Shown: positions 698-40,079, counted from the first letter of the stretch. The stretch is 40,514 nt of DNA from a virus (IMGVR_UViG_2529292831_000017:1-40514), one strand, 5' to 3'. Numbers and translations: made by a program. Notes: generated by a model from the sequence alone, not told the origin.

Positions 698-1060
698 GGG
701 GCTGATTCTGGATTCGACGGGATTTGCGAAACCCAAGGTGCATGCCGAGGGGCGGTTGGCCTCGTAAAAAGCCGCAAAAAATAGTCGCAAACGACGAAAA
801 CTACGCTTTAGCAGCTTAATAACCTGCTTAGAGCCCTCTCTCCCTAGCCTCCGCTCTTAGGACGGGGATCAAGAGAGGTCAAACCCAAAAGAGATCGCGT
901 GGAAGCCCTGCCTGGGGTTGAAGCGTTAAAACTTAATCAGGCTAGTTTGTTAGTGGCGTGTCCGTCCGCAGCTGGCAAGCGAATGTAAAGACTGACTAAG
1001 CATGTAGTACCGAGGATGTAGGAATTTCGGACGCGGGTTCAACTCCCGCCAGCTCCACCA
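698..1060 (+). ncRNA. ssrA: tmRNA (SsrA), 363 nt
   Basis: Begins GGGGCTGATTCTGGATTCGACGGG, contains the tag-reading-frame region, and ends in a tRNA-like 3' domain GGTTCAACTCCCGCCAGCTCCACCA; length and sequence match E. coli ssrA. Confidence 0.93.
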
Positions 1061-1063: not shown

Positions 1064-1070
1064 AAATCAA

Positions 1071-1103
1071 GGGGTTACGTGAAAGCGTAGCCCCTTTTTC
1101 TTT
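1071..1103 (+). terminator. Rho-independent terminator downstream of ssrA
   Basis: GGGGTTACG / CGTAGCCCC stem followed by TTTTTCTTT, immediately 3' of the tmRNA end. Confidence 0.6.
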
Positions 1104-1115
1104 GGTAGTGGCGGC

Positions 1116-1160
1116 AAAATGGCGACAGACTTTTGCGTCCATCTTGCCTGTCGCCATCTT
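1116..1160. promoter_or_regulatory. 10-bp perfect inverted repeat upstream of the WYL/BRCT-like gene (candidate operator)
   Basis: ATGGCGACAG (1119-1128) and CTGTCGCCAT (1148-1157) separated by 19 bp; lies just upstream of the AAGAGG ribosome-binding site of the 1184 ORF. Confidence 0.3.
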
Positions 1161-1183
1161 GAAATCATGCAAAGAGGTTTCAC

Positions 1184-1666
1184 ATGGAAGAACTTCACTT
1201 TGTTTACATCAATGCAAATGGTCGTATCGGTGTTCACTCAATACAGAGCATCAGTTATAGCGAAAATCATATACAGGGCATTTGTAAGAACACCGATCGA
1301 ATAAAAACCTTCCGAAAAGACCGCATTCTTAAACAGTACGATTCACCAGAACAAGCCATTCAGGAATGCGCGTCATTCCTCCCCGAAAACTACTCACATC
1401 TCACTAAGCAGTCTGGTCCGAAAAAAAATACATTCGATGTGTGCTTCACCGGATTTAAGAAAGCAGATAAAGAAAGATTGGTTGATAAGGCGAATGAACA
1501 AGGATTAACGGTAAGAACCTCTGTAACCCAAAGCCTTCAGATGCTCTGTTGCGGTTACAATGCAGGCCCATCAAAAGTATCGGCAGCCAGGATGAAAGGC
1601 ACAATCATCATAGATGAGCCTGGCTTTATACATTTTCTTGAAACGGGTGAGATCCCAGATGAATAA
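1184..1666 (+). CDS. Hypothetical 160-aa protein: N-terminal WYL-like motif (RIKTFRKDRI), C-terminal BRCT-like region
   Basis: Good SD (AAGAGG, 6-nt spacer). C-terminal half (VCFTGF...GLTVRTSVTQS...GYNAGPSKVSAARMKGTIIIDEPGFIHFL) follows the BRCT pattern seen at the C-terminus of NAD-dependent ligases. GC lower than phage backbone. Sits between attL and ogr. Confidence 0.5.
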   Translation: MEELHFVYINANGRIGVHSIQSISYSENHIQGICKNTDRIKTFRKDRILKQYDSPEQAIQECASFLPENYSHLTKQSGPKKNTFDVCFTGFKKADKERLVDKANEQGLTVRTSVTQSLQMLCCGYNAGPSKVSAARMKGTIIIDEPGFIHFLETGEIPDE

Positions 1667-1667
1667 A

Positions 1668-1694
1668 AACCTGCCGTAGCAGGTTCTCTTTCTT
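1668..1694. terminator. Bidirectional hairpin terminator between convergent 1184 ORF and ogr
   Basis: AACCTGC-CGTA-GCAGGTT perfect 7-bp stem, T-rich on the + side (CTCTTTCTT) and on the - side (TTTATTC). Confidence 0.6.
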
Positions 1695-1911
1695 AAAAAT
1701 TCATATGGCCCTGACCACCTGGCAATGGATGTGGAGGGGCTGTGGCAATCACTGCAGGTGTCACAATAAACCGGACCACTGTTTCATGGGTAACAAAAGT
1801 GCTCCCGCAGTTAATATTTTGGCACTGGCAGTAACGCTCTTTGGTGCTTTCTGTTACTTGAAAACTGCTCCTTGTGTGCGCCGCATGACCACACTTCGGA
1901 CAATTCATCAT
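1693..1911 (-). CDS. ogr: Ogr/Delta-type zinc-finger late transcription activator (72 aa from internal ATG)
   Basis: MMNCPKCGHAAH...KERYCQCQNINCGSTF matches the P2 Ogr C2-C2 zinc-finger pattern; the tracked ORF begins at an upstream GTG, the ATG at 1909-1911 gives the P2-like 72-aa length. Confidence 0.8.
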   Translation of the reverse strand: MMNCPKCGHAAHTRSSFQVTESTKERYCQCQNINCGSTFVTHETVVRFIVTPAVIATAPPHPLPGGQGHMNF

Positions 1912-13615: not shown

Positions 13616-14467
13616 ATGTTTACTGTTGGTATTTACGGCTTTACTCTAACAAAGATAACTCACTTTTCATTCGGGACAATGTATCCAATAGAAACCAGTT
13701 TTCTTAAATTAAAAAAATATAGACAAGACAAGGAAAAATTATATCTTACTGCGCTCCTTGAACTTGACATCATAGACAAGAGCGAAACAGATAATATCAT
13801 ATTTCATCTAGAGAAAATTTTGAGTTTTATAGAACAGAGAGCAGTATTTATCAGACACCAACTAAATAATAAGACTCATAAATTTGACTTGCCCATAGAT
13901 TACCCTCTCTTTATAACTCCTAATATTAACTTATCAAGTTCAGGAGAAATCATTCTTGAAGATTGCTTTTCCAAAAACTCAAGACGCTACTTTATTGAAC
14001 TTGCTATAAATAAGATCATCATTGCTAGAGATCGACCATTTACCACAATACTTCATAAAAATGTATTGGTTTTCTCTAATCCAATAAATTATCTTGATGT
14101 ATCATATTACTTACTTTTTTCTGGCCTTGAGTCATTAGTTCGAGAACGTGAGAATGATTTTAAATCAAACATTACGCCAATAATGTATCGTTACCTCAAA
14201 AAGCATGGGTTTAATATAAATCAACAAAACAATAAACATCATGACATCTCACTTGATATTTACTGTAGCTTAAGGAACGCATTATTTCACAATGGTCAAT
14301 TCCAAACCATGCCGATGAAAAGAGGCTCTAAAACAATCAGTTTTGCACTAAAGGATTTTTACTCACAATTTAAACGATTAAACTGCCTAGTCATATTAAA
14401 AGAAGCAGAATTCAGCGATCATCATATCAACTGGAATTTTAGTGATTATAGAAACCCTTTTATATAA
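13616..14467 (+). CDS. AT-rich accessory gene between S and V: hypothetical 283-aa protein with an Rx4H (HEPN-like) motif
   Basis: Opposite strand to the late operons, GC far below backbone, SD GGAG 5 nt upstream; motif SLRNALFHNG near the C-terminus. The same S-V junction holds the low-GC orf30 in P2. Confidence 0.5.
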   Translation: MFTVGIYGFTLTKITHFSFGTMYPIETSFLKLKKYRQDKEKLYLTALLELDIIDKSETDNIIFHLEKILSFIEQRAVFIRHQLNNKTHKFDLPIDYPLFITPNINLSSSGEIILEDCFSKNSRRYFIELAINKIIIARDRPFTTILHKNVLVFSNPINYLDVSYYLLFSGLESLVRERENDFKSNITPIMYRYLKKHGFNINQQNNKHHDISLDIYCSLRNALFHNGQFQTMPMKRGSKTISFALKDFYSQFKRLNCLVILKEAEFSDHHINWNFSDYRNPFI

Positions 14468-23250: not shown

Positions 23251-24933
23251 TTACAAATACCGTCTAACACGTATTTTATTAATGCTCGACTCATTTCCAA
23301 TTCTTATCAAAGCATTTCTCGCTTTTTCTCCGATGCGTTTCATTCTTTCTGAACCATTGCTATACCCACCAAACTTAAGAGCAGTAGCTATTATTGAATC
23401 ACCACCATCAAGAATGACTTTTTTAAATAAATCATAGTAGTCATCCTCTGAGGCAGCATCCAATATTTCCTCGTGCCTATCAGACCAACCATTCTGACTT
23501 GATAATTTTATTAGAACATCCTTTATAGAACCATCCAGATTTAAAGTAGTAGAATAATCTTGGATTTTTGACTTTAACTCAGCATCTTTTATAGGATGAA
23601 CATTCATGTAAATAGATTGAACATATTCCTTAAGAGCATCATTACCGTAATTAATAAATTTACTTATTAATTCACTTGCTTTAATATTTTCACCTAAATC
23701 TCTATACAGTCCGACAACACTATCCAAGTCACTTGGAGTTACATACTCTATCCCACCAACCACCGCTTGATATAGATTATCAATAACCTGATTTCGGTTA
23801 TCTTCAAATGAATTATAGAAAAGCTTCCATGCTTCAAACAGTGAACCTCGCTTACTATCACGGATAAGTTCATCATTCCTTAGACTTACTTGCCTTTGGA
23901 AATTGTTCATATCAATATATCCATGCCTTACCATGTCTATAAGGACTTCATCAAGTTCGTTTGTTTTTTTATAATCATATATAAGCAAAGTATTAAGCCA
24001 TTTTTTTTCTTTTCCATCCTCTTTTTCATCACGCATATAGATATTTCTCATATTTCTAATATACTCCAATGATGGTACATCTCCATCTGGAGTAAATGCG
24101 TAATGACTCCAACAATACAAAGTTAAGGAGTGTGCGACTTCATTTGCAATTTTTTCAAAATTAACGTTAATGCCAGGTAACAAGGCTAGCAAAAACCGCT
24201 CTATTTTTTTCAGTATCCTAATATTCTTAATACCCAGGGAAATGGAGTATTTGCTTAATAATTTATGAACATCAGAATTATTTTTATATGCTATAACTGC
24301 ACATTCTTCTGGAGTAGGATTATAGGTAATCTCTCTATCAATAACCTTTTCTTTATAAGTGGAGTAGTCATCCATACCACTTGTCCCGTTATTAAGTAAA
24401 AGAACCACCTTACAATTTTTTTGTTCTTTCAATAAAGAAACCAACCCTAAGACATCTTTCACTTCTAAATTTTTACCACGTCTTTCTAAGTCATCTATGA
24501 CTACAATAACATTAGTAATTGACATAAATGACATTGACTCAAGTGTCGTAGTGAAATTTTTCAAAAAAGGTGTATCTTTTAACACACGAGCGGTCTTTCT
24601 AGTGCAGGATTCAAGAAGCCCCTTTGCATTTTGTGTTGCTGTTTTTAAATTAGGTTTGTTTCCAATGAAATCTTTCGTAATTGTATTTTCAAAGATGGAG
24701 TATTTTAATGCGTCCAATGAATTAACACCAAAAAGAGAGACGTAACTATATCTATTAAATGCAATCTTATTTTTATTTTCCTTTAAGAAAGCATTCCAAG
24801 TATAGGTTTTCCCAATCCCCCACTCACCCTGAATAGCCATTACCTCAGGTTCTGCAGATGAAATAAAGTCTGACAACTGTTCTTTAATATAGTCTAATGA
24901 CATGTACATTCTCCGAGATAGATAGTCATCCAT
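23251..24933 (-). CDS. Accessory gene: KAP-family-like P-loop NTPase (560 aa)
   Basis: Walker A GEWGIGKT and Walker B VIVVIDDLERR (the GxWGxGK / hhhhDDLDR pattern of KAP NTPases); very AT-rich; lies between cos and Q. Confidence 0.6.
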   Translation of the reverse strand: MDDYLSRRMYMSLDYIKEQLSDFISSAEPEVMAIQGEWGIGKTYTWNAFLKENKNKIAFNRYSYVSLFGVNSLDALKYSIFENTITKDFIGNKPNLKTATQNAKGLLESCTRKTARVLKDTPFLKNFTTTLESMSFMSITNVIVVIDDLERRGKNLEVKDVLGLVSLLKEQKNCKVVLLLNNGTSGMDDYSTYKEKVIDREITYNPTPEECAVIAYKNNSDVHKLLSKYSISLGIKNIRILKKIERFLLALLPGINVNFEKIANEVAHSLTLYCWSHYAFTPDGDVPSLEYIRNMRNIYMRDEKEDGKEKKWLNTLLIYDYKKTNELDEVLIDMVRHGYIDMNNFQRQVSLRNDELIRDSKRGSLFEAWKLFYNSFEDNRNQVIDNLYQAVVGGIEYVTPSDLDSVVGLYRDLGENIKASELISKFINYGNDALKEYVQSIYMNVHPIKDAELKSKIQDYSTTLNLDGSIKDVLIKLSSQNGWSDRHEEILDAASEDDYYDLFKKVILDGGDSIIATALKFGGYSNGSERMKRIGEKARNALIRIGNESSINKIRVRRYL

Positions 24934-24970
24934 ATTATAACCCGAGTACTATCAAAGTAATAAGCGCGCG

Positions 24971-24989
24971 CTCGTATCCCCGCCACGCC
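24971..24989. other. Prophage cos site (186-type cohesive-end sequence)
   Basis: Reverse complement reads GGCGTGGCGGGGATACGAG, homologous to the 19-nt P2/186 cohesive end, and the flanking GCCCGCTTT...GCGGTTT also matches the second cos at 40245-40263. Confidence 0.6.
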
Positions 24990-25032
24990 TGCCCGCTTTA
25001 TGTAGCGGTTTTCATGCGCCTGCATGACATAA

Positions 25033-25057
25033 GCAAAATCCCGCCACTCCTGGCGGG
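25033..25057 (-). terminator. Rho-independent terminator downstream of the 203-aa membrane protein gene
   Basis: CCCGCCA / TGGCGGG stem with a T-run on the - strand (ATTTTGC). Confidence 0.5.
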
Positions 25058-25149
25058 CCTCAGCTAAAACGATCCTCAAACGATCATGCGGATTCATGCG
25101 GCATAGACATGCACAATCTCCAAAGCGGGCATCGAGACTTTTTGGAAAC

Positions 25150-25761
25150 CTACGTAACCACAGTTAATGTGTGCATCCTGTCTCGAATTGCATCACACGT
25201 CTCATCAAAAAGCTTGGTGATGGTTGTATGGTTCAACTCCGCCTCTTTCCAATAATTTTGCCCGTCAAATTCTGGATCGCTATGCTTAAACGATATTGAC
25301 TCTGAAAGGCATTCCTTCCGGAAACGGTCCAAGATTATATAAACCTCTGGTGAGATGAACGGTTTGTTAGATTCAACACTTGTAACAAAAGTGTTAAATG
25401 CATCAAAAAAAACTTTCAACCTTCTAAATTTTCTCTCTTCAAATGGTTCGTTGGGGTCAACATGATCCAGCGCAGGCCTCAGCTTAAGCACGCTTTCTCT
25501 GGTTTCAAACATCGAATTCCAAATGAGACTATATGCTGATAACTCCTTATCAAAATACGCTTTCGTTACATAAACAGAATTGTCTAACTTAGCCTTTATT
25601 CTTTCATTAGTTGCACTCAGTTGTGATTGAAATTCAGCAATATCTTTGTTTAGCCGCGACTTATATCTTTCTAAATAAACTTTCCCGATCCAAACAAATA
25701 TGCCAGATGCAACAAAAGACACCCCACCCAACGAAGCCAGAACTTTAAAGACCAAATCCAT
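25150..25761 (-). CDS. Accessory gene: 203-aa protein with one N-terminal TM helix and a coiled-coil-rich body
   Basis: Hydrophobic N-terminus LVFKVLASLGGVSFVASGIFVWIG; GC below backbone; between the SOS operon and cos, where P2 carries tin/old. Confidence 0.5.
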   Translation of the reverse strand: MDLVFKVLASLGGVSFVASGIFVWIGKVYLERYKSRLNKDIAEFQSQLSATNERIKAKLDNSVYVTKAYFDKELSAYSLIWNSMFETRESVLKLRPALDHVDPNEPFEERKFRRLKVFFDAFNTFVTSVESNKPFISPEVYIILDRFRKECLSESISFKHSDPEFDGQNYWKEAELNHTTITKLFDETCDAIRDRMHTLTVVT

Positions 25762-26143: not shown

Positions 26144-26377
26144 TTAGTGCAGCCAGCTGTCGTCTTCCCAAACCTGTTGCATAATTTCCATCACCCGCTT
26201 TTTGTCTTCATCAAGCTTTAAGCCACTCAGCTCAACGCCGTTTGCCGACCCTTTACGGATGCGGATAGCGGTCTTGGGATAGATGGGTAGCAGGTTGCGG
26301 TAAAGCTCGGACTCCAGAGCGTCCAGGGTAGACTGGCTAATCTTCTGCTCTTTATCGATCATTATTTCAATGCGCAT
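26144..26377 (-). CDS. dinI: DinI-like protein (77 aa from internal ATG)
   Basis: MRIEIMIDKEQKISQSTLDALESELYRNLL...DKKRVMEIMQQVWEDDSW aligns with E. coli DinI (MRIEVTIAK...ALAGEL...EILQETWE). Confidence 0.75.
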   Translation of the reverse strand: MRIEIMIDKEQKISQSTLDALESELYRNLLPIYPKTAIRIRKGSANGVELSGLKLDEDKKRVMEIMQQVWEDDSWLH

Positions 26378-31583: not shown

Positions 31584-32093
31584 TCACAGCAAACCGAATG
31601 AAGCACCGAGGCCAGTCACGGTATCAACTGCACTCGCCATCGCAGGATTAGCCTGTAAACGGGCCTGCAATGAAACAGCCGCCAGCGCCATCAGTCGTGT
31701 TACAGAGTTAATGCTGCTGATAGCATCACGACGACCGGCACAGGTTTTTACATCGCCAGATACCGCACCTGCAGCAACACGCCCGATCTCTGCGGTTGCA
31801 CTCATGACGTAATGTGGCAGTTTCTCTTTTGCCACCTCATTAATCGGTACACATGGCAGACAATGAATCTGAGCCAGAAAGCCATCGACCAGCGTTGAAT
31901 CTTCAGTCAGATCGGTAAGCAACCAGATTTCTGACGGCGTGAGCTGATGTGATTGTTCCGGGTTAAGCTTGTTACGCAGCGTCTGGACGTTCATTCCCGC
32001 GCGTTCTGCCAGCTTCGCCATGTTGTGACGCAGTGCGAAAGCCCGACAGGCTTCATCAAAATGCGGATGTTTGGAAATCTTGTAATCAAACAT
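31584..32093 (-). CDS. cII: CII-like lysogeny-establishment regulator (169 aa)
   Basis: Same length as 186 CII and same position after apl; the 186-CII similarity is from recollection, not alignment. Confidence 0.75.
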   Translation of the reverse strand: MFDYKISKHPHFDEACRAFALRHNMAKLAERAGMNVQTLRNKLNPEQSHQLTPSEIWLLTDLTEDSTLVDGFLAQIHCLPCVPINEVAKEKLPHYVMSATAEIGRVAAGAVSGDVKTCAGRRDAISSINSVTRLMALAAVSLQARLQANPAMASAVDTVTGLGASFGLL

Positions 32094-32475: not shown

Positions 32476-33120
32476 ATGGAGTATTTGATGATCAACATTC
32501 AGGCAGGTCCCAATACGGGAGGTAGAGAGGCGATCGAAAGATTGCTTAAGGCATATGGATTCAGCACCAAACAAGCACTAGCTGACCATTTAAAAATTTC
32601 AAAAAGTACTATGGCAAACAGAAACTTACGAGATAGCTTTCCTGCTGAGTGGGTCATCCAGTGTGCACTTGAAACAGGGGTTTCGCTGCTATGGCTAGCC
32701 ACAGGCCAGGGTGAAATGTTCACTTCAGAAGATCGAGAAAAAAATCCCGTAAACGAGTCAAACGTCACGCTTCGACCACTTTCCAAAATCGTTGCCCCCA
32801 GCATTAAGCAAGCCGAATTGAAGAATGGGGAGTTGAATAACGAAGGGGAAGTCTTGCTTGATAGCAGCTTACTGGACAGTGAGCCCGGCAATTCATTGTT
32901 TATAAAAACGTCTACTGACTGCTTTGTAGTGGATATATCTGTCAAACAGGTTAGCAATGGTTACTGGCTTGTCGATATTGATGGGGTGAAAAGCATCGTC
33001 AAGATTGCCCGAATACCAGGCAACAGAATTGTTGTTCACCAGGACGACTCATCCTTTGAGTGTTCTGTTGATGATGTGGAAGTTGTCGGGCGAGCCATTA
33101 AAGTAATCAAGAGTATTTAG
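32476..33120 (+). CDS. cI: CI-type immunity repressor
   Basis: N-terminal HTH-like segment (KQALADHLKISKSTMANRN) plus C-terminal domain; co-oriented with and directly upstream of int. Confidence 0.75.
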   Translation: MEYLMINIQAGPNTGGREAIERLLKAYGFSTKQALADHLKISKSTMANRNLRDSFPAEWVIQCALETGVSLLWLATGQGEMFTSEDREKNPVNESNVTLRPLSKIVAPSIKQAELKNGELNNEGEVLLDSSLLDSEPGNSLFIKTSTDCFVVDISVKQVSNGYWLVDIDGVKSIVKIARIPGNRIVVHQDDSSFECSVDDVEVVGRAIKVIKSI

Positions 33121-34146: not shown

Positions 34147-35358
34147 ATGAAAATTAATAAAATTAGTACCACAGATTATGTAGCAATGCTTAATGAAATA
34201 TTATTCGAAATAGAGTCCAAACCACTATTAAAAGCTCCTTATCTCGCGGGAAATAATATCATTAAAGATTTTAACAATAGGGTTAAATGTTACCTAGAAG
34301 TCATAAACAAGATTTACAGTAAAAACCCTCACAACCTTGTAATTCGTGAAATAAAATCAAAAATAAAAAGCACAAAAACACTCTCGGATAAAATTTCAGA
34401 AACACTTAGATTATATTTAAACGGTAAAATCAAAGAATCTTACCTAACATTTGATCACGCTATCACCAAGACAAATATAAATGACCACATCTATAATATG
34501 TCCGTTCCATTAAGTGTGTTTTGTCATCCTGGAAAACCTCTATTTCGCGTAAGAAAAAGCGATCAAATAATAAAAGAAAGGCGTGATATCTTTCATATTC
34601 CTTTTTCTAAACGTTATCTTGTGAATGCACAAAGATACTCAGTCTCAGGCCTTCCTTGTTTATATTTAGGAACCTCTATTTTTGTATGTTGGCAAGAAAT
34701 GGAAAAACCAGACTTTGATAAATTATATGTATCTTCATTCATCACAGAGTCTGGTTCATCACATAGAATACTTAACCTTGGTTATAATTTGAGATCAGCA
34801 TTGAACATAAACACCTTAGCATGGCTGTTAGATAATGATACTGAAGGAACTATGAATAGGGTCATTTCGAACTTAATTTCCTGGCCACTTGTGTTAGCCT
34901 GTAATTATACAAAACAACATAAAAACTCTAGTTTCAACCCTGAGTACATAATCCCCAACCTTCTTATGCAATGGCTCAGCAGCAATGAAAATAAGGGCAT
35001 AGCCGGTATCGCTTATCGCACGACTAAAATTCTCAATCAAAAAGATAGTGATATTGGTATTAATATAATCATGCCACCTAAAATGGATAATATTTTGGAT
35101 TCTGGTTATGATTACTGCCCACACTTACTAAGTGTATTTAAATTTACCAAACCTGTTTCATGGCAAGTATTTAGCACTTTAAACGTCAAGACCGATGGTA
35201 TGGATGAAGATAGACTCATAATGGGAGGACCAACTCCAGCATCAGGTACAATTGAAGATTTTGATGAATCGCTAGTGGAATATTACAATAATACCTCATT
35301 CAAAAAAGTTCAATTGTTAATTCATAAAATGATGAAGCATGATTATCTTGAGCCTTAA
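34147..35358 (+). CDS. Accessory gene: 403-aa protein with RES-domain-like motifs
   Basis: About 30% GC; starts 4 bp after the int stop; LFRVRK...QRYSVSGLPCLYLGTSIFVCWQEM and later GIAGIAYRTTKI...GINIIMPP follow the RES pattern (conserved Arg, Glu, Ser/Thr). Confidence 0.5.
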   Translation: MKINKISTTDYVAMLNEILFEIESKPLLKAPYLAGNNIIKDFNNRVKCYLEVINKIYSKNPHNLVIREIKSKIKSTKTLSDKISETLRLYLNGKIKESYLTFDHAITKTNINDHIYNMSVPLSVFCHPGKPLFRVRKSDQIIKERRDIFHIPFSKRYLVNAQRYSVSGLPCLYLGTSIFVCWQEMEKPDFDKLYVSSFITESGSSHRILNLGYNLRSALNINTLAWLLDNDTEGTMNRVISNLISWPLVLACNYTKQHKNSSFNPEYIIPNLLMQWLSSNENKGIAGIAYRTTKILNQKDSDIGINIIMPPKMDNILDSGYDYCPHLLSVFKFTKPVSWQVFSTLNVKTDGMDEDRLIMGGPTPASGTIEDFDESLVEYYNNTSFKKVQLLIHKMMKHDYLEP

Positions 35359-35387
35359 GTGGCGGCGTTTTGGCGGTAGAGTATTAA
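35359..35387. repeat. 29-bp imperfect direct repeat, copy 1 (copy 2 at 36317-36345)
   Basis: GTGGCGGCGTTTTGGCGGTAGAGTATTAA versus CTGGCGGCACTTTGGCGGCAGAGCATTAA (24/29 identical); each ends in the stop codon region of a cargo gene. Confidence 0.6.
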
Positions 35388-35391
35388 GAGG

Positions 35392-36345
35392 ATGCAGTTA
35401 CAAAAAACCTCTAACTCCATTATAGAAATAGGAAGTGATCTGATGAATAACATCATCTATACAAACGAACAATATGAAATCGAAAATCTAAGTATAGCCC
35501 TGTATGCAATTTTCGATAAAATAAAAGAAAGGATTTCCATCGCCGAAGAATCTAACATTTACACTATCAGAGATGTTGGTCATAACTCGGAATCTCAAGT
35601 TTGCAAAAACACTTTTAATAAATTAACGCAATTTTTTGATTCAAACATTCTTTACATCCAAGACTGTGAAGTCTTAATTTCATATATAACAGAGTGCAGT
35701 TTGGAACTCTCTGTTATAGCGCAACAATTTTATGAAATACTCTGGAGCGATTTGTTAATAACCACACCAGACAAAGATTTTAAAGGGATTTTAGTAGCAA
35801 AATCGCCAAAAACAAGCTTGCTATTTTCTTTGTTAAGCATGCTATTTATAAAAATGAATAGTTTGTTTGACTACGTTACTAAAATCTCCTTTGAATTATT
35901 AAAGAGTAACTTCCCAATCTCTAAATACAAGAAATTAATATCCAAAAATAAATTATACGGCAACTATAAAGAATTAGTTTTTTCGACAACAACGGATACC
36001 ATATTTGAAAATAGCAATTTTATAAACACTGTAACATCATTACGAAATCATATAATTCACCACGGTTATATAGATGAGCACCCAAAGGTATATGTTGAAG
36101 TGGAAAATGGCATTGCATTTGGGAGATTTGTACTATTCCCCGATTTGAATGAGAGTGGAGGACTGGAAAATTGCATTAACAGAACTTTATTCTATTCAAA
36201 AGAAACAAAGATTGATGAAAAATTACCTGACTTAATTAAGGAATGCCAAATTAAAGTAATTAACTCGTTGAAGGTACTAATTAAAGATCATGAAGCATTA
36301 GAAGATTCAAGAAAGACTGGCGGCACTTTGGCGGCAGAGCATTAA
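35392..36345 (+). CDS. Accessory gene: 317-aa protein with an Rx4H (HEPN-like) motif
   Basis: About 30% GC; motif SLRNHIIHHG parallels SLRNALFHNG in the 13616 ORF; the ATG at 35443 has the better SD (AGGAAG, 7-nt spacer). Confidence 0.5.
   Translation: MQLQKTSNSIIEIGSDLMNNIIYTNEQYEIENLSIALYAIFDKIKERISIAEESNIYTIRDVGHNSESQVCKNTFNKLTQFFDSNILYIQDCEVLISYITECSLELSVIAQQFYEILWSDLLITTPDKDFKGILVAKSPKTSLLFSLLSMLFIKMNSLFDYVTKISFELLKSNFPISKYKKLISKNKLYGNYKELVFSTTTDTIFENSNFINTVTSLRNHIIHHGYIDEHPKVYVEVENGIAFGRFVLFPDLNESGGLENCINRTLFYSKETKIDEKLPDLIKECQIKVINSLKVLIKDHEALEDSRKTGGTLAAEH
36317..36345. repeat. 29-bp imperfect direct repeat, copy 2
   Basis: See copy 1; a related sequence AGTGGCGGCAAAATGGCGACAGAC also occurs near attL (1107-1130). 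Confidence 0.6.
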
Positions 36346-36430: not shown

Positions 36431-36478
36431 ATGTAGGAATTTCGGACGCGGGTTCAACTCCCGCCAGCTCCACCAAAT
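36431..36478. repeat. attR: second copy of the 48-bp ssrA 3' end
   Basis: Exact copy of 1016-1063; flanks diverge immediately outside the repeat. Confidence 0.85.
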
Positions 36479-36659: not shown

Positions 36660-37856
36660 GTGGCACGGACAACACGCCCCCTGACCAACACCGAAGTTCT
36701 GCGCGCTAAAGCGATGGAGAAGGATCTAACGCTGCATGATGGCGATGGCCTTTTCCTAATAGTGAAAACCAGCGGGAAAAAGCTCTGGCGCTTCCGTTAT
36801 CAACGTCCAGTGACAAAACAGCGGACAATGATGGGACTAGGTGCTTTCCCCGCTCTTTCACTTGCTGACGCCCGAGGGTTAAGAGCAGATTACCTTGCCT
36901 TGTTAGCCAACGGAATTGACCCACAAATTCAGGCCGAAGTTGCAAAGGAACAGCAGCAAATCGCTCTGGACAGTATTTTTTCAACGGTTGCCGCTAACTG
37001 GTTCCAGCTCAAAAGTAAAAGCGTTACCCCTGATTACGCAAAAGACATTTGGCGTTCACTGGAGAAAGATGTATTCCCTGTCATTGGTGAGATCCCCGTT
37101 CAGCAAATCAAAGCACGAACTTTGGTTGAAGCCCTTGAGCCAATCAAAGCTCGTGGGGCGCTTGAGACTGTACGTCGACTTGTGCAGCGCATCAACGAGA
37201 TAATGATTTATGCCGTAAACACTGGTCTGATTGATGCCAATCCAGCATCAGGTATTGGAATGGCCTTTGAGAAGCCCAAAAAACAAAACATGCCGACGCT
37301 GCGGCCAGAAGAATTGCCGAAGCTGATGCGTTCTTTGGTTATGTCTAATCTGTCTGTTCCGACGCGTTGTCTTATTGAGTGGCAACTTCTCACGCTTGTG
37401 CGCCCTTCTGAAGCATCCGGCACTCGATGGGCAGAAATCGATCTCGATGCCAAGCTCTGGACGATCCCAGCCGAACGGATGAAGGCCAAGCGTGAACATA
37501 TTGTTCCTCTATCTCCTCAGGCATTAGAGATTCTGGAAGTAATGAGGCCAATCAGTGCTCACCGTGAGCATGTTTTTCCAAGCAGAAATGATCCAAAGCA
37601 AGCGATGAATAGTCAGACTGCAAATGCCGCGTTAAAACGAATTGGATATGGAGGTAAATTAGTAGCTCATGGTTTGCGCTCAATAGCGAGTACTGCTATG
37701 AATGAAGCTGGTTTTAATTCAGATGTGATTGAAGCAGCACTCGCTCATAGTGATAAAAATGAAGTGCGAAAAGCTTATAATCGCGCGACATATATCAATG
37801 CTAGAAAAGAAATTATGAATTGGTGGGGAAATTGCATCAATAAAAGTAAGATCTAA
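36660..37856 (+). CDS. P4-type tyrosine integrase (CP4-57 IntA-like)
   Basis: 398 aa, GTG start with SD AAGGAG; N-terminal arm-binding-type domain plus catalytic region (HGLRSIAST...LAHSD...VRKAYNRATY); P4-family integrases typically target ssrA and tRNA genes. Confidence 0.9.
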   Translation: MARTTRPLTNTEVLRAKAMEKDLTLHDGDGLFLIVKTSGKKLWRFRYQRPVTKQRTMMGLGAFPALSLADARGLRADYLALLANGIDPQIQAEVAKEQQQIALDSIFSTVAANWFQLKSKSVTPDYAKDIWRSLEKDVFPVIGEIPVQQIKARTLVEALEPIKARGALETVRRLVQRINEIMIYAVNTGLIDANPASGIGMAFEKPKKQNMPTLRPEELPKLMRSLVMSNLSVPTRCLIEWQLLTLVRPSEASGTRWAEIDLDAKLWTIPAERMKAKREHIVPLSPQALEILEVMRPISAHREHVFPSRNDPKQAMNSQTANAALKRIGYGGKLVAHGLRSIASTAMNEAGFNSDVIEAALAHSDKNEVRKAYNRATYINARKEIMNWWGNCINKSKI

Positions 37857-37878: not shown

Positions 37879-38787
37879 TTAGATCATGGTTGCTATGCGT
37901 TCTTTTAAATAACCAAATTGCGTGTAGCCTTCATTCTTTTTAATTAAACTTGCTATTTGAGACTCGTTATAGCTACCTTCAAATCCATAAAGACAGAGCT
38001 CATCATTCCCACTGTAACAAAACTGACATTTATCTACCTCATCATGCAGACATTTTGTTTTCAACCCTTTAATTTCACCAATTAACATTCGGCAGAATTC
38101 GCCAATTAACCACTTACCTTTACATATATTAAGTAAACCTGCTAAGTCTTTGCTTACCCCCATCTGAATAGCAAATTCATCAAGTTCTTTTTCTCGCTCA
38201 ACAATTTTTTCAAAAGCGCCTATATTTTTCAAGTGTTGAACGCTCATCTTATATGATGCTAGAGATTCATAATCTTTCACGCAAGCTTTTTTCAAGCACT
38301 CTAAAGACATATAATACAACGACATTAGAGCCTCTGCTAAATTTTCATAGAGCATCTCAATTAACTCACTGGTTAGCAATTTTGGCTGTATTCTTGTACA
38401 TTGTTCAATAACACATTTTATTGCCTGCCGTGTGATAAAATGGCTTTCCATCGAGTACCATCTCAGCACAAAAACGGCTGAATTATTAACAACTTCACCT
38501 CGGTAGTAGCGAGCATCTCGATCTATAATGCCTAAAATGTAGTGCCCTAAATCCCCCTCATACTCAAGTTCAAGTAATGCCTCAATAAAGTCAATTACAC
38601 CTCTATTACCTTCACTCATATCCTTGAAATTCTGAACAGCAACCACCTCGAAATATTTATCAAGCTGTTGACAAATGCCTTCATAAATTGAAATGTCATC
38701 GACGCCTTCAACGACTAACATTGGCGTTTCAGACATAATTGCCTCATTCAATATTTCATCATACTCCATACTCAGCCAATCGTTCAT
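37879..38787 (-). CDS. ariB: TOPRIM/DUF4435-like nuclease, PARIS AriB-like (302 aa)
   Basis: N-terminal LVVEGVDD glutamate motif and ILGIIDRDARYY DxD motif; AT-rich; 4-bp overlap with the upstream ATPase gene. Confidence 0.55.
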   Translation of the reverse strand: MNDWLSMEYDEILNEAIMSETPMLVVEGVDDISIYEGICQQLDKYFEVVAVQNFKDMSEGNRGVIDFIEALLELEYEGDLGHYILGIIDRDARYYRGEVVNNSAVFVLRWYSMESHFITRQAIKCVIEQCTRIQPKLLTSELIEMLYENLAEALMSLYYMSLECLKKACVKDYESLASYKMSVQHLKNIGAFEKIVEREKELDEFAIQMGVSKDLAGLLNICKGKWLIGEFCRMLIGEIKGLKTKCLHDEVDKCQFCYSGNDELCLYGFEGSYNESQIASLIKKNEGYTQFGYLKERIATMI

Positions 38788-40079
38788 TTCGAATTATTCT
38801 CAATTTTAACCGGTGCAAGTTTAACCAGACTGTTGGGTGACTTCTTAGATATGATAGGGCTATGAGAGGCCACGATTATTTGTGTTTCTGGCACTAATTC
38901 CTGTAGAAGACTCAGCAATGTACGTTGCCATTTGATATTAAGAGAAATTTCTGGCTCATCAATAAGTAGAATATCTCTTCCACGACCTGCAATTATAACT
39001 ATTGATAGAAAGGTAAGAATATGCCTTTCACCACTTGATAATGCTCCGATGGATAAATGAGAGTCTTCAGTTTCAACATATATCTCATGCTTATTAATAA
39101 TTAACTTTTTATCTCCAACCAAGAAGGAGTTAAAGACATCAACCAAGATGTTAATGGAACTTAAAAGTTGTTTCTCAACCTTTAATTCACGAGTCATATT
39201 CATGACTAACTTTCTCAACAGTTGGTTTTCAAGTATTTTATTAACATCAGATTCACTTTGTATTGATGATAAAATATTAACAACATGATTTTTAAAATTA
39301 TTCTCAAAACCATCATCCAACGCTTCAATAATCCTCTCTTTATTTTTATATACATCACTCTCAAAATTCGAAGGCATCACGATATCTTCAGAAGTTTTCT
39401 TTGCATCCACTGCTATGGCCAACGTATCAAACAACGCATTTTGAATTCTTTCAGTAGCTATATTCCTTGCTAATAGATAACGTTCAACAAGCATATTCTC
39501 GATATTACTCATTTTTATATTTTGAAGAAAAACATGTTTTGCATCTAAATCCATATCATCTTTTTTATTTCTCCTCCTGTTGTTTTGATATCTCTTTAGA
39601 AACATTGCCATCCTTTCACTAAACAAATGAATATCTGTCTTCGCAAATAAAGAGCGATATTCTGGATGACCAAGAAATCTCAAAATATCCACTGGTTCAA
39701 CTTTCAATGACTCTGATGTTACGCCCCTCTCCACACCAAGAGATAATGATGTACAATCAGCTAATTCAGAATCGACAAGATCGCTCCAGTCGTATGAGTC
39801 TTTAATAATCCCCTCTTCTCCCTCCTCTTGAATCTGTCTTACTGGTACAAACTCTCTTTCTCCATTATTTTTCTCATAATAGATTTCAACATACATTACA
39901 TTTTCGCTTGCAAGCGACTCATCATCACGTTTAAGGATAGAATGTATTAATTTCAAAAATGTAGTTTTACCGCAACCATTATCACCATAAATAACAGATA
40001 TGTCACCATCAGCAAATTCAACATAAGCTGCTCTGTTAATTGATTGGAAGCCTGCAATGTATATAGATAATAGCTTCAT
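38784..40079 (-). CDS. ariA: ABC-type ATPase, PARIS AriA-like (431 aa)
   Basis: Walker A GDNGCGKTT, ABC signature LSSGERHIL, Walker B ILLIDEPE, H-loop ASHSP; AT-rich. Confidence 0.6.
   Translation of the reverse strand: MKLLSIYIAGFQSINRAAYVEFADGDISVIYGDNGCGKTTFLKLIHSILKRDDESLASENVMYVEIYYEKNNGEREFVPVRQIQEEGEEGIIKDSYDWSDLVDSELADCTSLSLGVERGVTSESLKVEPVDILRFLGHPEYRSLFAKTDIHLFSERMAMFLKRYQNNRRRNKKDDMDLDAKHVFLQNIKMSNIENMLVERYLLARNIATERIQNALFDTLAIAVDAKKTSEDIVMPSNFESDVYKNKERIIEALDDGFENNFKNHVVNILSSIQSESDVNKILENQLLRKLVMNMTRELKVEKQLLSSINILVDVFNSFLVGDKKLIINKHEIYVETEDSHLSIGALSSGERHILTFLSIVIIAGRGRDILLIDEPEISLNIKWQRTLLSLLQELVPETQIIVASHSPIISKKSPNSLVKLAPVKIENNSK

Follow-up and report, generated by a model that had tools for sequence, protein, structure and literature searches.

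What does the small gene between the left attachment site and ogr of an ssrA-integrated prophage do, and is it governed by the inverted repeat just upstream of it? The prophage is carried by the viral stretch IMGVR_UViG_2529292831_000017 (positions 1-40514; the whole stretch of 40,514 nucleotides is called the window here). An earlier note on this DNA had described, within positions 1107-1694, a gene for a 160-residue protein with a WYL-like N-terminal and a BRCT-like C-terminal part, and had suggested that the product is a regulator with the inverted repeat as operator. All of the sequence features described there are present, the span being the open reading frame (ORF) at 1184-1666 plus its flanks, and the gene does sit between attL and ogr. 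We find that the product is a stand-alone protein made of a WYL domain without a helix-turn-helix (HTH), a short helical linker and a LigA/RFC1-class BRCT domain with an invariant Thr-Gly...Lys phosphate pocket, and that the repeat, rather than being an operator, is best read as three predicted arm-type sites of the phage integrase (Int) that belong to the P' arm of attP. The gene, its folds, its family and the Int sites are the firm parts of this account, held with high confidence; the function discussed below is put forward far more tentatively.

The WYL-BRCT gene and its protein

The ORF is a real gene. It is annotated in an identical RefSeq record, and it is intact and identically spaced, with attL and ogr 876 bp apart, in 168 of 5,426 complete E. 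coli genomes; an empty-site variant was sought in E. coli and none was found, all 168 genomes with this attL and ogr showing the 876-bp spacing. The ratio of non-synonymous to synonymous substitutions (dN/dS) is about 0 to 0.4 within the E. coli lineage, with about 0.1 as a round figure (42 alleles in the comparison), synonymous sites are saturated between lineages that still share about 70% protein identity, and full-length homologues reach down to about 30% identity. A Shine-Dalgarno sequence precedes the start codon, and AAGGTG or AAGAGG at an equal distance from the start is kept in most relatives. The strong bidirectional terminator that had been noted after the gene is a hairpin with T-rich tracts both ways, namely a moderate T-run after it on the plus strand and TTTTTATT on the minus strand. 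The terminator scan listed the plus-strand version only, and the minus-strand T-run was read directly from the sequence; because of this second tract, the hairpin terminates ogr as well.

The N-terminal part had been called WYL-like on account of the segment RIKTFRKDRI (residues 39-48, nt 1298-1327), and both the predicted structure and the family profile bear this out. The AlphaFold2 (AF2) model reached a predicted local distance difference test (pLDDT) score of 92 for the full protein and of 92.8 for residues 1-76 alone. The latter form the five-stranded Sm/SH3-like beta-barrel of the WYL family (PF13280), with WYL domains as the best solved structural neighbours and generic Sm/Hfq barrels slightly lower; the closest neighbours are damage-response WYL proteins activated by single-stranded DNA (ssDNA). 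Pfam WYL gave no match to the window protein alone at E<=10; it did find eight of the 57 close relatives, and 23 among 57 longer, more distant ones (best E 1.2e-8). A profile of the N-terminal domain built from the wider family matched the WYL domains of PafBC (E 2.6e-6) and PafC (E 4.5e-6), aligning Y-I-E-G-Y-C...R-T-F-R-x-D-R-I over W-Y-F-E-A-Y-C...R-x-F-R-x-D-R-I of the latter two. Within this signature, K-T-F-R-K-D-R-I of the window protein is nearly invariant in the family alignment, and the W-Y-L position reads N-H-I in the window protein and x-Y-I/L in most of the family. No HTH was detected by Pfam or NCBIfam or in the AF2 model, which contains only two short linker helices outside the two domains.

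The C-terminal part adopts the beta-alpha-beta-beta-alpha-beta-alpha fold of BRCT domains (PF00533), so that the structure prediction by which the earlier note had proposed to check its domain calls yielded both folds. Searched on its own against Pfam, NCBIfam and the PDB, the window protein gave only sub-threshold BRCT matches (Pfam BRCT, 19.5 bits, under the gathering cut-off of 21.3) and no WYL. However, Pfam BRCT matches 50 of 57 relatives at E<=0.1, and the family profile finds the BRCT domains of Thermus filiformis LigA (1dgs) and of human and yeast RFC1 in the PDB with E of about 4e-5; because of the fold and the profile, BRCT membership was accepted despite the low single-sequence score. 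In an alignment of 57 full-length homologues, residues Y8, T42, T89, G90, F91, L99, L121, G124 and K131 are invariant. The N-terminal third carries the conserved block F-x-Y...K-T-F-R-K-D-R and the C-terminal half the block C-F-T-G-F-K-K...V-T-x-N-L...G-Y-N-A-G-P-x-K...E-T-G-E. In BRCT domains of the phosphate-binding class, strand 1 is followed by Ser/Thr-Gly and helix 2 begins with Lys, and T89, G90 and K131 occupy these positions; from their place in the alignment, we take them to be equivalent to S1655, G1656 and K1702 of BRCA1 and to T415, G416 and K458 of RFC1. The BRCT domains of LigA and RFC1, the best sequence matches, thus share the Thr-Gly and Lys positions of the pocket with the window protein, but they are attached to a ligase or an AAA+ clamp-loader body, whereas the window BRCT is not, and it is mildly acidic rather than basic. 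Bacterial BRCT domains have been thought to be almost confined to LigA and the Pol III epsilon-like exonuclease (PMC10386641).

WYL domains are known as sensors of ssDNA or ligands that are wired to HTH regulators, helicases or Cas proteins, while here one is joined to a BRCT domain in a tiny enzyme-free protein. The regulators PafBC, DriD, CapW and BrxR combine an N-terminal winged HTH (wHTH) with the WYL domain and a C-terminal extension, the WCX dimerisation domain, whereas the window protein has neither wHTH nor WCX and carries the BRCT domain as its output module. For this reason it cannot work like these transcription factors. It is an uncharacterised variant of the WYL sensor proteins, with BRCT in place of the usual HTH output.

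The inverted repeat and the integrase arm sites

The repeat ahead of the Shine-Dalgarno sequence consists of ATGGCGACAG (1119-1128) and CTGTCGCCAT (1148-1157) and is perfect over 10 bp, as had been described; a longer form of 14 nt has 93% complementarity (1115-1128 / 1148-1161) with a 19-nt spacer. Its arms turn out to match Int sites. The arm-type consensus of 186-type integrases is tgccGCCActt (PMC3448106), the reverse complement of which, aagTGGCggca, is the motif found in the window; copies of TGGCGRCA lie in both arms of the repeat, the right arm, tgTCGCCAtctt, fitting the consensus in forward orientation. Direct pairs of the motif flank the att core on both sides, each with its members 11 bp apart (agTGGCGGCA/aaTGGCGACA at 1107-1127 and cTGGCGGCA/tTGGCGGCA at 36317-36336). 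The window holds 14 copies of TGGCGRCA where 3.6 are expected, a number reached in 0 of 100 shuffles, and five of them are placed at the two att junctions.

Comparison with relatives points in the same direction. The direct pair was found in 14 of 15 distinct upstream regions of att-adjacent homologues, the exception (L074) having the variant TGGCAGCA. The attP of Fels-2, which has no WYL-BRCT gene, carries the same 11-bp-spaced pair plus a third copy; this third copy is direct and 12 bp after the second in Fels-2 (L082, 100-107), and inverted and 21 bp after the second in the window. Only the E. coli lineage has a perfect inverted third copy (8/8, or 10/10 when the flanks are counted); in other gene-bearing lineages it is degenerate (4-6/8) and at varying distances. 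An operator should be kept where the gene is present and be absent where it is not, and the repeat behaves otherwise. Since the arms match 186-type Int sites, which recur at both att junctions and in gene-less Fels-2, and since gene-bearing lineages do not consistently keep the inverted copy, the repeat is not regarded as an operator. As RNA the upstream region is unremarkable (fold z-score -1.8); an RNA element formed by the repeat was also considered and rejected, given this z-score and a Shine-Dalgarno sequence that is not sequestered. Inverted repeats beside att sites should therefore be compared with integrase arm sites before they are called operators.

The element 3' of ssrA is a Fels-2/186-like P2-family prophage. 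The left end of the window holds smpB (1-483) and then the transfer-messenger RNA (tmRNA) gene ssrA (698-1060), the 25-mer 3' end of which occurs exactly twice in the window, and the WYL-BRCT gene lies at the left end of the prophage, with the 3' end of ssrA on one side and ogr on the other. In Fels-2, ogr follows directly after attP without an intervening gene; its sequence matches the window over 1050-1128, a block that includes the replacement terminator for ssrA, and then jumps straight to ogr. Judged against Fels-2, the gene, its Shine-Dalgarno sequence, the third arm site and the terminator form a cassette of about 560 bp (1129 to about 1690) inserted after 1128.

Family, genomic context and possible function

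The pairing of WYL and BRCT had been called unusual, a view that does not hold: the fusion was listed in one sentence by Makarova et al. in 2014 (PMC4012209), and protein clusters with this module number in the thousands. At E<=1e-3, an exhaustive profile search yielded 2,595 clusters (50% identity), and 204 of these reached E<=1e-30. Beyond that line of Makarova et al., nothing on WYL-BRCT was found in the searchable literature, and recent surveys of P2 defence hotspots are silent; one literature match to "BRCT" proved to be a false match to "BRiCs". Among the 142 best new family representatives, 79 are stand-alone proteins of about 160 residues, about 40 have one to four N-terminal hydrophobic (membrane) segments ahead of the WYL-BRCT unit, and about 20 are soluble but longer, owing to duplicated units, additional BRCT domains or an extension of no assigned family. 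Examples of the second kind are P0139, P0160, P0166, P0185, P0190 and P0197. Two WYL-BRCT units are present in P0172 and P0174, and an extension of about 230 residues is common to P0131, P0158, P0177, P0182 and P0183 (compare PHROG 36782). In 57 longer relatives, no fused Pfam domain besides BRCT and WYL recurred, four other families being found in one protein each.

In temperate phages of the P2 family, this is a conserved accessory gene. It is carried by 28 sequenced temperate phages of 31-47 kb with hosts in Escherichia, Yersinia, Vibrio, Mannheimia, Burkholderia and Pseudomonas, and it takes one of two positions in P2-family elements. The first is the att end, convergent with ogr or gpD, as in the window, L086-L090, L093 and Burkholderia phage vB_SBP26. 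The second is immediately behind the immunity repressor gene, and variable cargo and int usually come next; the repressor is a 186-type CI in L084, L085, L092, L094, L108, L109, L110 and L125, and an HTH-S24 protein (LexA-like, with a G-D-S-M motif) in L113, L115, L119, L121, L122 and L132. In Vibrio phage PV94 the gene lies directly downstream of an HTH gene in the repressor position, and in Mannheimia phage PHL101 it starts 4 nt after the annotated "CI-like repressor" gene cI, with its ribosome-binding site within the end of cI. Neighbour clustering of 52 loci revealed no conserved partner gene; only repressor, int and tail genes recur. In a marine Pseudothioglobus genome (L083, 7366-8884), a copy belongs to an island with integrase, AlpA and Rep genes, where it converges with an Mrr-like nuclease gene and has a DNA methylase nearby, which indicates that the family is not restricted to P2-like phages.

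What the protein might do can be approached from the two domains and the gene position. We propose, tentatively and aware that it may well prove wrong, that it is a DNA-structure-binding accessory protein of lysogens that interferes with incoming DNA, by superinfection exclusion or defence. Put more broadly, such a protein would work either in superinfection exclusion or in the sensing of DNA damage, and not as a transcription factor. As the gene lies directly behind the immunity repressor in many relatives, and here ends the string from cI to attP, it is expected to be made in lysogens. In the window, cI is at 32476-33120 and a CII-like gene at 31584-32093, and in the circular phage form the order cI-int-orf-orf-attP-WYL-BRCT gene runs on the same strand throughout, so that the lysogeny-side string ends with the WYL-BRCT gene in this phage, too. 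The linkage to two unrelated repressor folds (186-CI and S24) argues for expression together with the repressor in lysogens and against direct contact between the two proteins. Expression in this prophage might come in part from read-through from the very strongly transcribed ssrA, through the terminator copy at 1069-1096; this is considered because no sigma-70 promoter was found and the ssrA promoter is the only strong one reading into the gene when the prophage is integrated.

As for the target, solved WYL domains (PafBC, DriD, CapW) bind ssDNA, and DriD and CapW are among the structural-neighbour entries. BRCT domains of the LigA/RFC1 class bind 5'-phosphorylated duplex ends or nicks; they contribute to binding nicked DNA (PMC10386641), and the RFC1 BRCT region helps to bind 5' duplex ends at gaps (PMC9293004). 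Taken together, these properties suggest, as the most likely activity, binding to ssDNA joined to a 5'-phosphorylated end, as found at nicks and gaps and at resected or cohesive ends. Because the protein lacks a catalytic domain, its effect would come from occupying or marking this structure. Expression in lysogens and the frequent membrane anchoring of relatives point towards interference with incoming foreign DNA as the outcome, and anchoring fits action at the site of DNA entry.

There are precedents for the gene order. Lambda rexAB, and glo between cI and int in the Vibrio P2-like phage K139, are lysogen-expressed exclusion genes co-transcribed with the repressor; like the WYL-BRCT gene, they are accessory genes behind the repressor or between repressor and int, but they have no sequence or fold relation to it.

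Several observations weigh against interference with incoming DNA. The reading is reasoned from domain analogy and gene position, for a protein without a characterised homologue. The phosphate pockets of BRCT domains also bind phosphopeptides, ADP-ribose or NAD-type ligands. The isoelectric point (pI) is 6.95 for the whole protein and 5.8 for its BRCT half, so that the protein is not basic as general DNA-binding proteins typically are. His18 (codon 1235-1237) and His29 (codon 1268-1270) of the enterobacterial subfamily replace, respectively, the strand-2 Arg (Arg18) present in 90% of the wider family and the Tyr of W-Y-L, so that the ligand may differ from the ssDNA bound by PafBC, DriD and CapW. 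No sigma-70 promoter was detected upstream on the plus strand (a weak candidate in relatives, TTCATA-16-TGTAAT, is not conserved in the window), and the ssrA terminator copy, through which read-through would have to pass, looks strong. Positions beside att or between cI and int are general cargo hotspots (PMC13586616), for which reason position alone is weak evidence of function. PADLOC 2.0 has no model for the family, and none of its models matched over most of the protein; the best match covers the C-terminal 72 positions of the candidate PDC-S48 (E 1.8e-7), in the BRCT region only.

A more specific form of the proposal, which we regard as unlikely, is a previously unrecognised single-protein immunity or exclusion module of temperate phages that is made in lysogens, captures a single-stranded stretch beside a 5'-phosphate and blocks ligation or circularisation in competition with the BRCT domain of host LigA. 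Its targets would be cohesive ends, or the nicks left after cos annealing, of entering or replicating foreign DNA; it would be tethered to the membrane at the DNA entry site in many bacteria; and in this prophage the gene might be turned on by the very act of integration into ssrA, which puts a cassette lacking a promoter downstream of that of the tmRNA. A role in sensing DNA damage or ssDNA for the prophage or the host is only a little easier to credit. Detection of ssDNA would fall to the WYL domain, in the manner of PafBC and DriD, and the BRCT domain would recruit or modulate a repair or replication factor (LigA, a clamp or a polymerase) or affect induction independently of LexA and RecA. 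This would agree with the ssDNA-activated proteins being the nearest structural neighbours, with co-transcription of gene and repressor in many phages, and with a prophage of the SOS-linked 186 type that has a DinI/Tum-like gene at 26144-26377. However, the two unrelated repressor folds adjoining the gene run contrary to a specific repressor interaction, there is no conserved partner gene, R18 and Y29 of the family are His in this subfamily, and membrane-anchored relatives are hard to reconcile with recruitment of repair proteins. Counter-defence, in which the protein shields phage DNA ends or ssDNA, or sequesters a phosphorylated or nucleotide-derived signal, against host nucleases or signalling immunity, is improbable as well. 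Anti-defence genes usually lie in early lytic operons, whereas this gene is found with or behind the lysogeny genes and in the orientation opposite to the late genes, and the family also exists outside recognisable phages and in membrane-anchored forms. In its favour are the architecture, which is small, non-enzymatic and ligand-binding and is encoded on phages by a single gene, and descriptions of WYL domains as sensors of negatively charged ligands (PMC4012209) and of BRCT pockets that bind phosphate-bearing ligands (PMC10386641).

The transcription regulator proposed by the earlier note, with the repeat at 1119-1157 as operator for itself, the prophage or its cargo, is very hard to sustain, and sequence comparison has already largely refuted it. 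Although the repeat has no mismatch and closely precedes the Shine-Dalgarno sequence, and the WYL proteins BrxR, CapW, PafBC and DriD are indeed regulators, these read DNA through the N-terminal wHTH that is absent here, and all WYL regulators of defence islands carry such an HTH or DNA-sequence-reading domain. In addition, the left arm belongs to the direct pair of predicted Int sites seen again at attR and in Fels-2, relatives with the gene do not conserve the right arm, and in many phages the gene is part of the cI operon and is preceded by no intergenic region. That the database labels are right and the protein is a DNA ligase or an exonuclease can practically be dismissed. The family itself is catalogued as PHROG 2561 and in RefSeq as "BRCT domain-containing protein"; the end-to-end match to the former (E 2e-77) marks it as a known but mislabelled phage family, with the WYL half unrecognised and a misleading "DNA ligase" label (PHROG 2561; phages 500465-1 and PHL101) or "putative exonuclease" label (phage Cartapus). 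The NCBIfam LigA match is limited to the last ~100 model positions (19.6 bits against a cut-off of 444), and that to the DEDDh exonuclease model NF004719 to positions 229-307 of 331 (26.1 bits against a cut-off of 389). The adenylation domain (KxDG), oligonucleotide-binding (OB) fold, zinc finger and helix-hairpin-helix (HhH) motifs of LigA and the DEDDh domain were not found, and 160 residues are too few for a nucleotidyl-transferase, OB-fold or DEDDh domain. Since there is no catalytic domain, both labels are artefacts of BRCT annotation and should be dropped. Subunit B of the split phage DNA ligase (PR1/T5-like, PDB 9hu3_B) differs from the window protein in having HhH motifs and a phage-encoded catalytic partner, of which there is no counterpart here.

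If the protein is a binder of DNA ends or gaps that is active in lysogens, as proposed above, it would represent a new and very compact mechanism of prophage exclusion or DNA-damage sensing, and it might serve as a simple reagent for the recognition of 5' junctions.

Feature coordinates and other loci

Table 1. Features of the WYL-BRCT locus and of the attachment sites, in window coordinates
Feature	Position	Strand	Remarks
attL core (3' end of ssrA, duplicated at attR)	1036..1060	+	exact 25-mer; tmRNA annotation in identical RefSeq record
Replacement terminator for ssrA, phage-supplied	1069..1096	+	12-pair hairpin, then TTTCTTTGG
Predicted integrase arm-type site P'1, TGGCGGCA	1109..1116	+	matches reverse complement of 186-type arm consensus
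Predicted integrase arm-type site P'2, TGGCGACA (left arm of inverted repeat)	1120..1127	+	11 bp after P'1
Third, inverted copy of arm motif (right arm of inverted repeat)	1149..1156	-	
Shine-Dalgarno sequence AAAGAGG	1171..1177	+	6 nt before ATG
Coding sequence of 160-residue WYL-BRCT protein, stop included	1184..1666	+	ATG start; PHROG 2561 full-length match, E 2e-77
WYL-type Sm-like beta-barrel, residues 3-52, five strands	1190..1339	+	
Two short linker helices, residues 55-73, poorly conserved	1346..1402	+	AF2 secondary structure and alignment
LigA/RFC1-type BRCT, residues 84-154, invariant T89, G90, K131	1433..1645	+	
Hairpin terminator AACCTGC-CGTA-GCAGGTT, common to WYL-BRCT gene (+) and ogr (-)	1668..1685	both	
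ogr, late-gene activator, convergent neighbour	1693..1911	-	identical RefSeq record
Predicted P-arm integrase sites (TGGCGGCA, 3 nt, TGGCGGCA)	36318..36336	+	about 115 bp before attR core
attR core	36451..36475	+	second exact copy of the 25-mer

Some other loci of the window deserve mention. A DinI-family protein (Pfam E 9e-24) is encoded at 26144-26377, where 186 has a Tum-type SOS-controlled antirepressor, and its position fits a 186-like inducible switch. Between int and attR (34147-36345), two ORFs of 403 and about 300-317 residues, without Pfam or PADLOC match, begin 5 nt past the int stop, and the predicted P-arm sites overlap the 3' end of the second. Beyond attR the window departs from the otherwise identical RefSeq record NZ_CP025862. 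A second integrase gene follows right after attR (36660-37856, plus strand), and then a pair on the minus strand that resembles the PARIS defence system, an AriB-like DUF4435 protein (37879-38787, AriB E 4e-13) and an AriA-like AAA ATPase (38784-40079, AriA E 1e-28), so that a second mobile island lies in tandem at ssrA. The cargo hotspot between gpA and the portal gene (23251-25761) encodes a 560-residue KAP-family P-loop nucleoside triphosphatase (Pfam E 1e-8; PADLOC candidate PDC-S49, E 2e-25), beside which lies a 203-residue ORF without family match, whose RefSeq label "valyl-tRNA synthetase" is implausible. Finally, a 283-residue ORF without Pfam or PADLOC match lies on the opposite strand in the tail/baseplate block (13616-14467), in a hotspot of the P2 Z/fun type.

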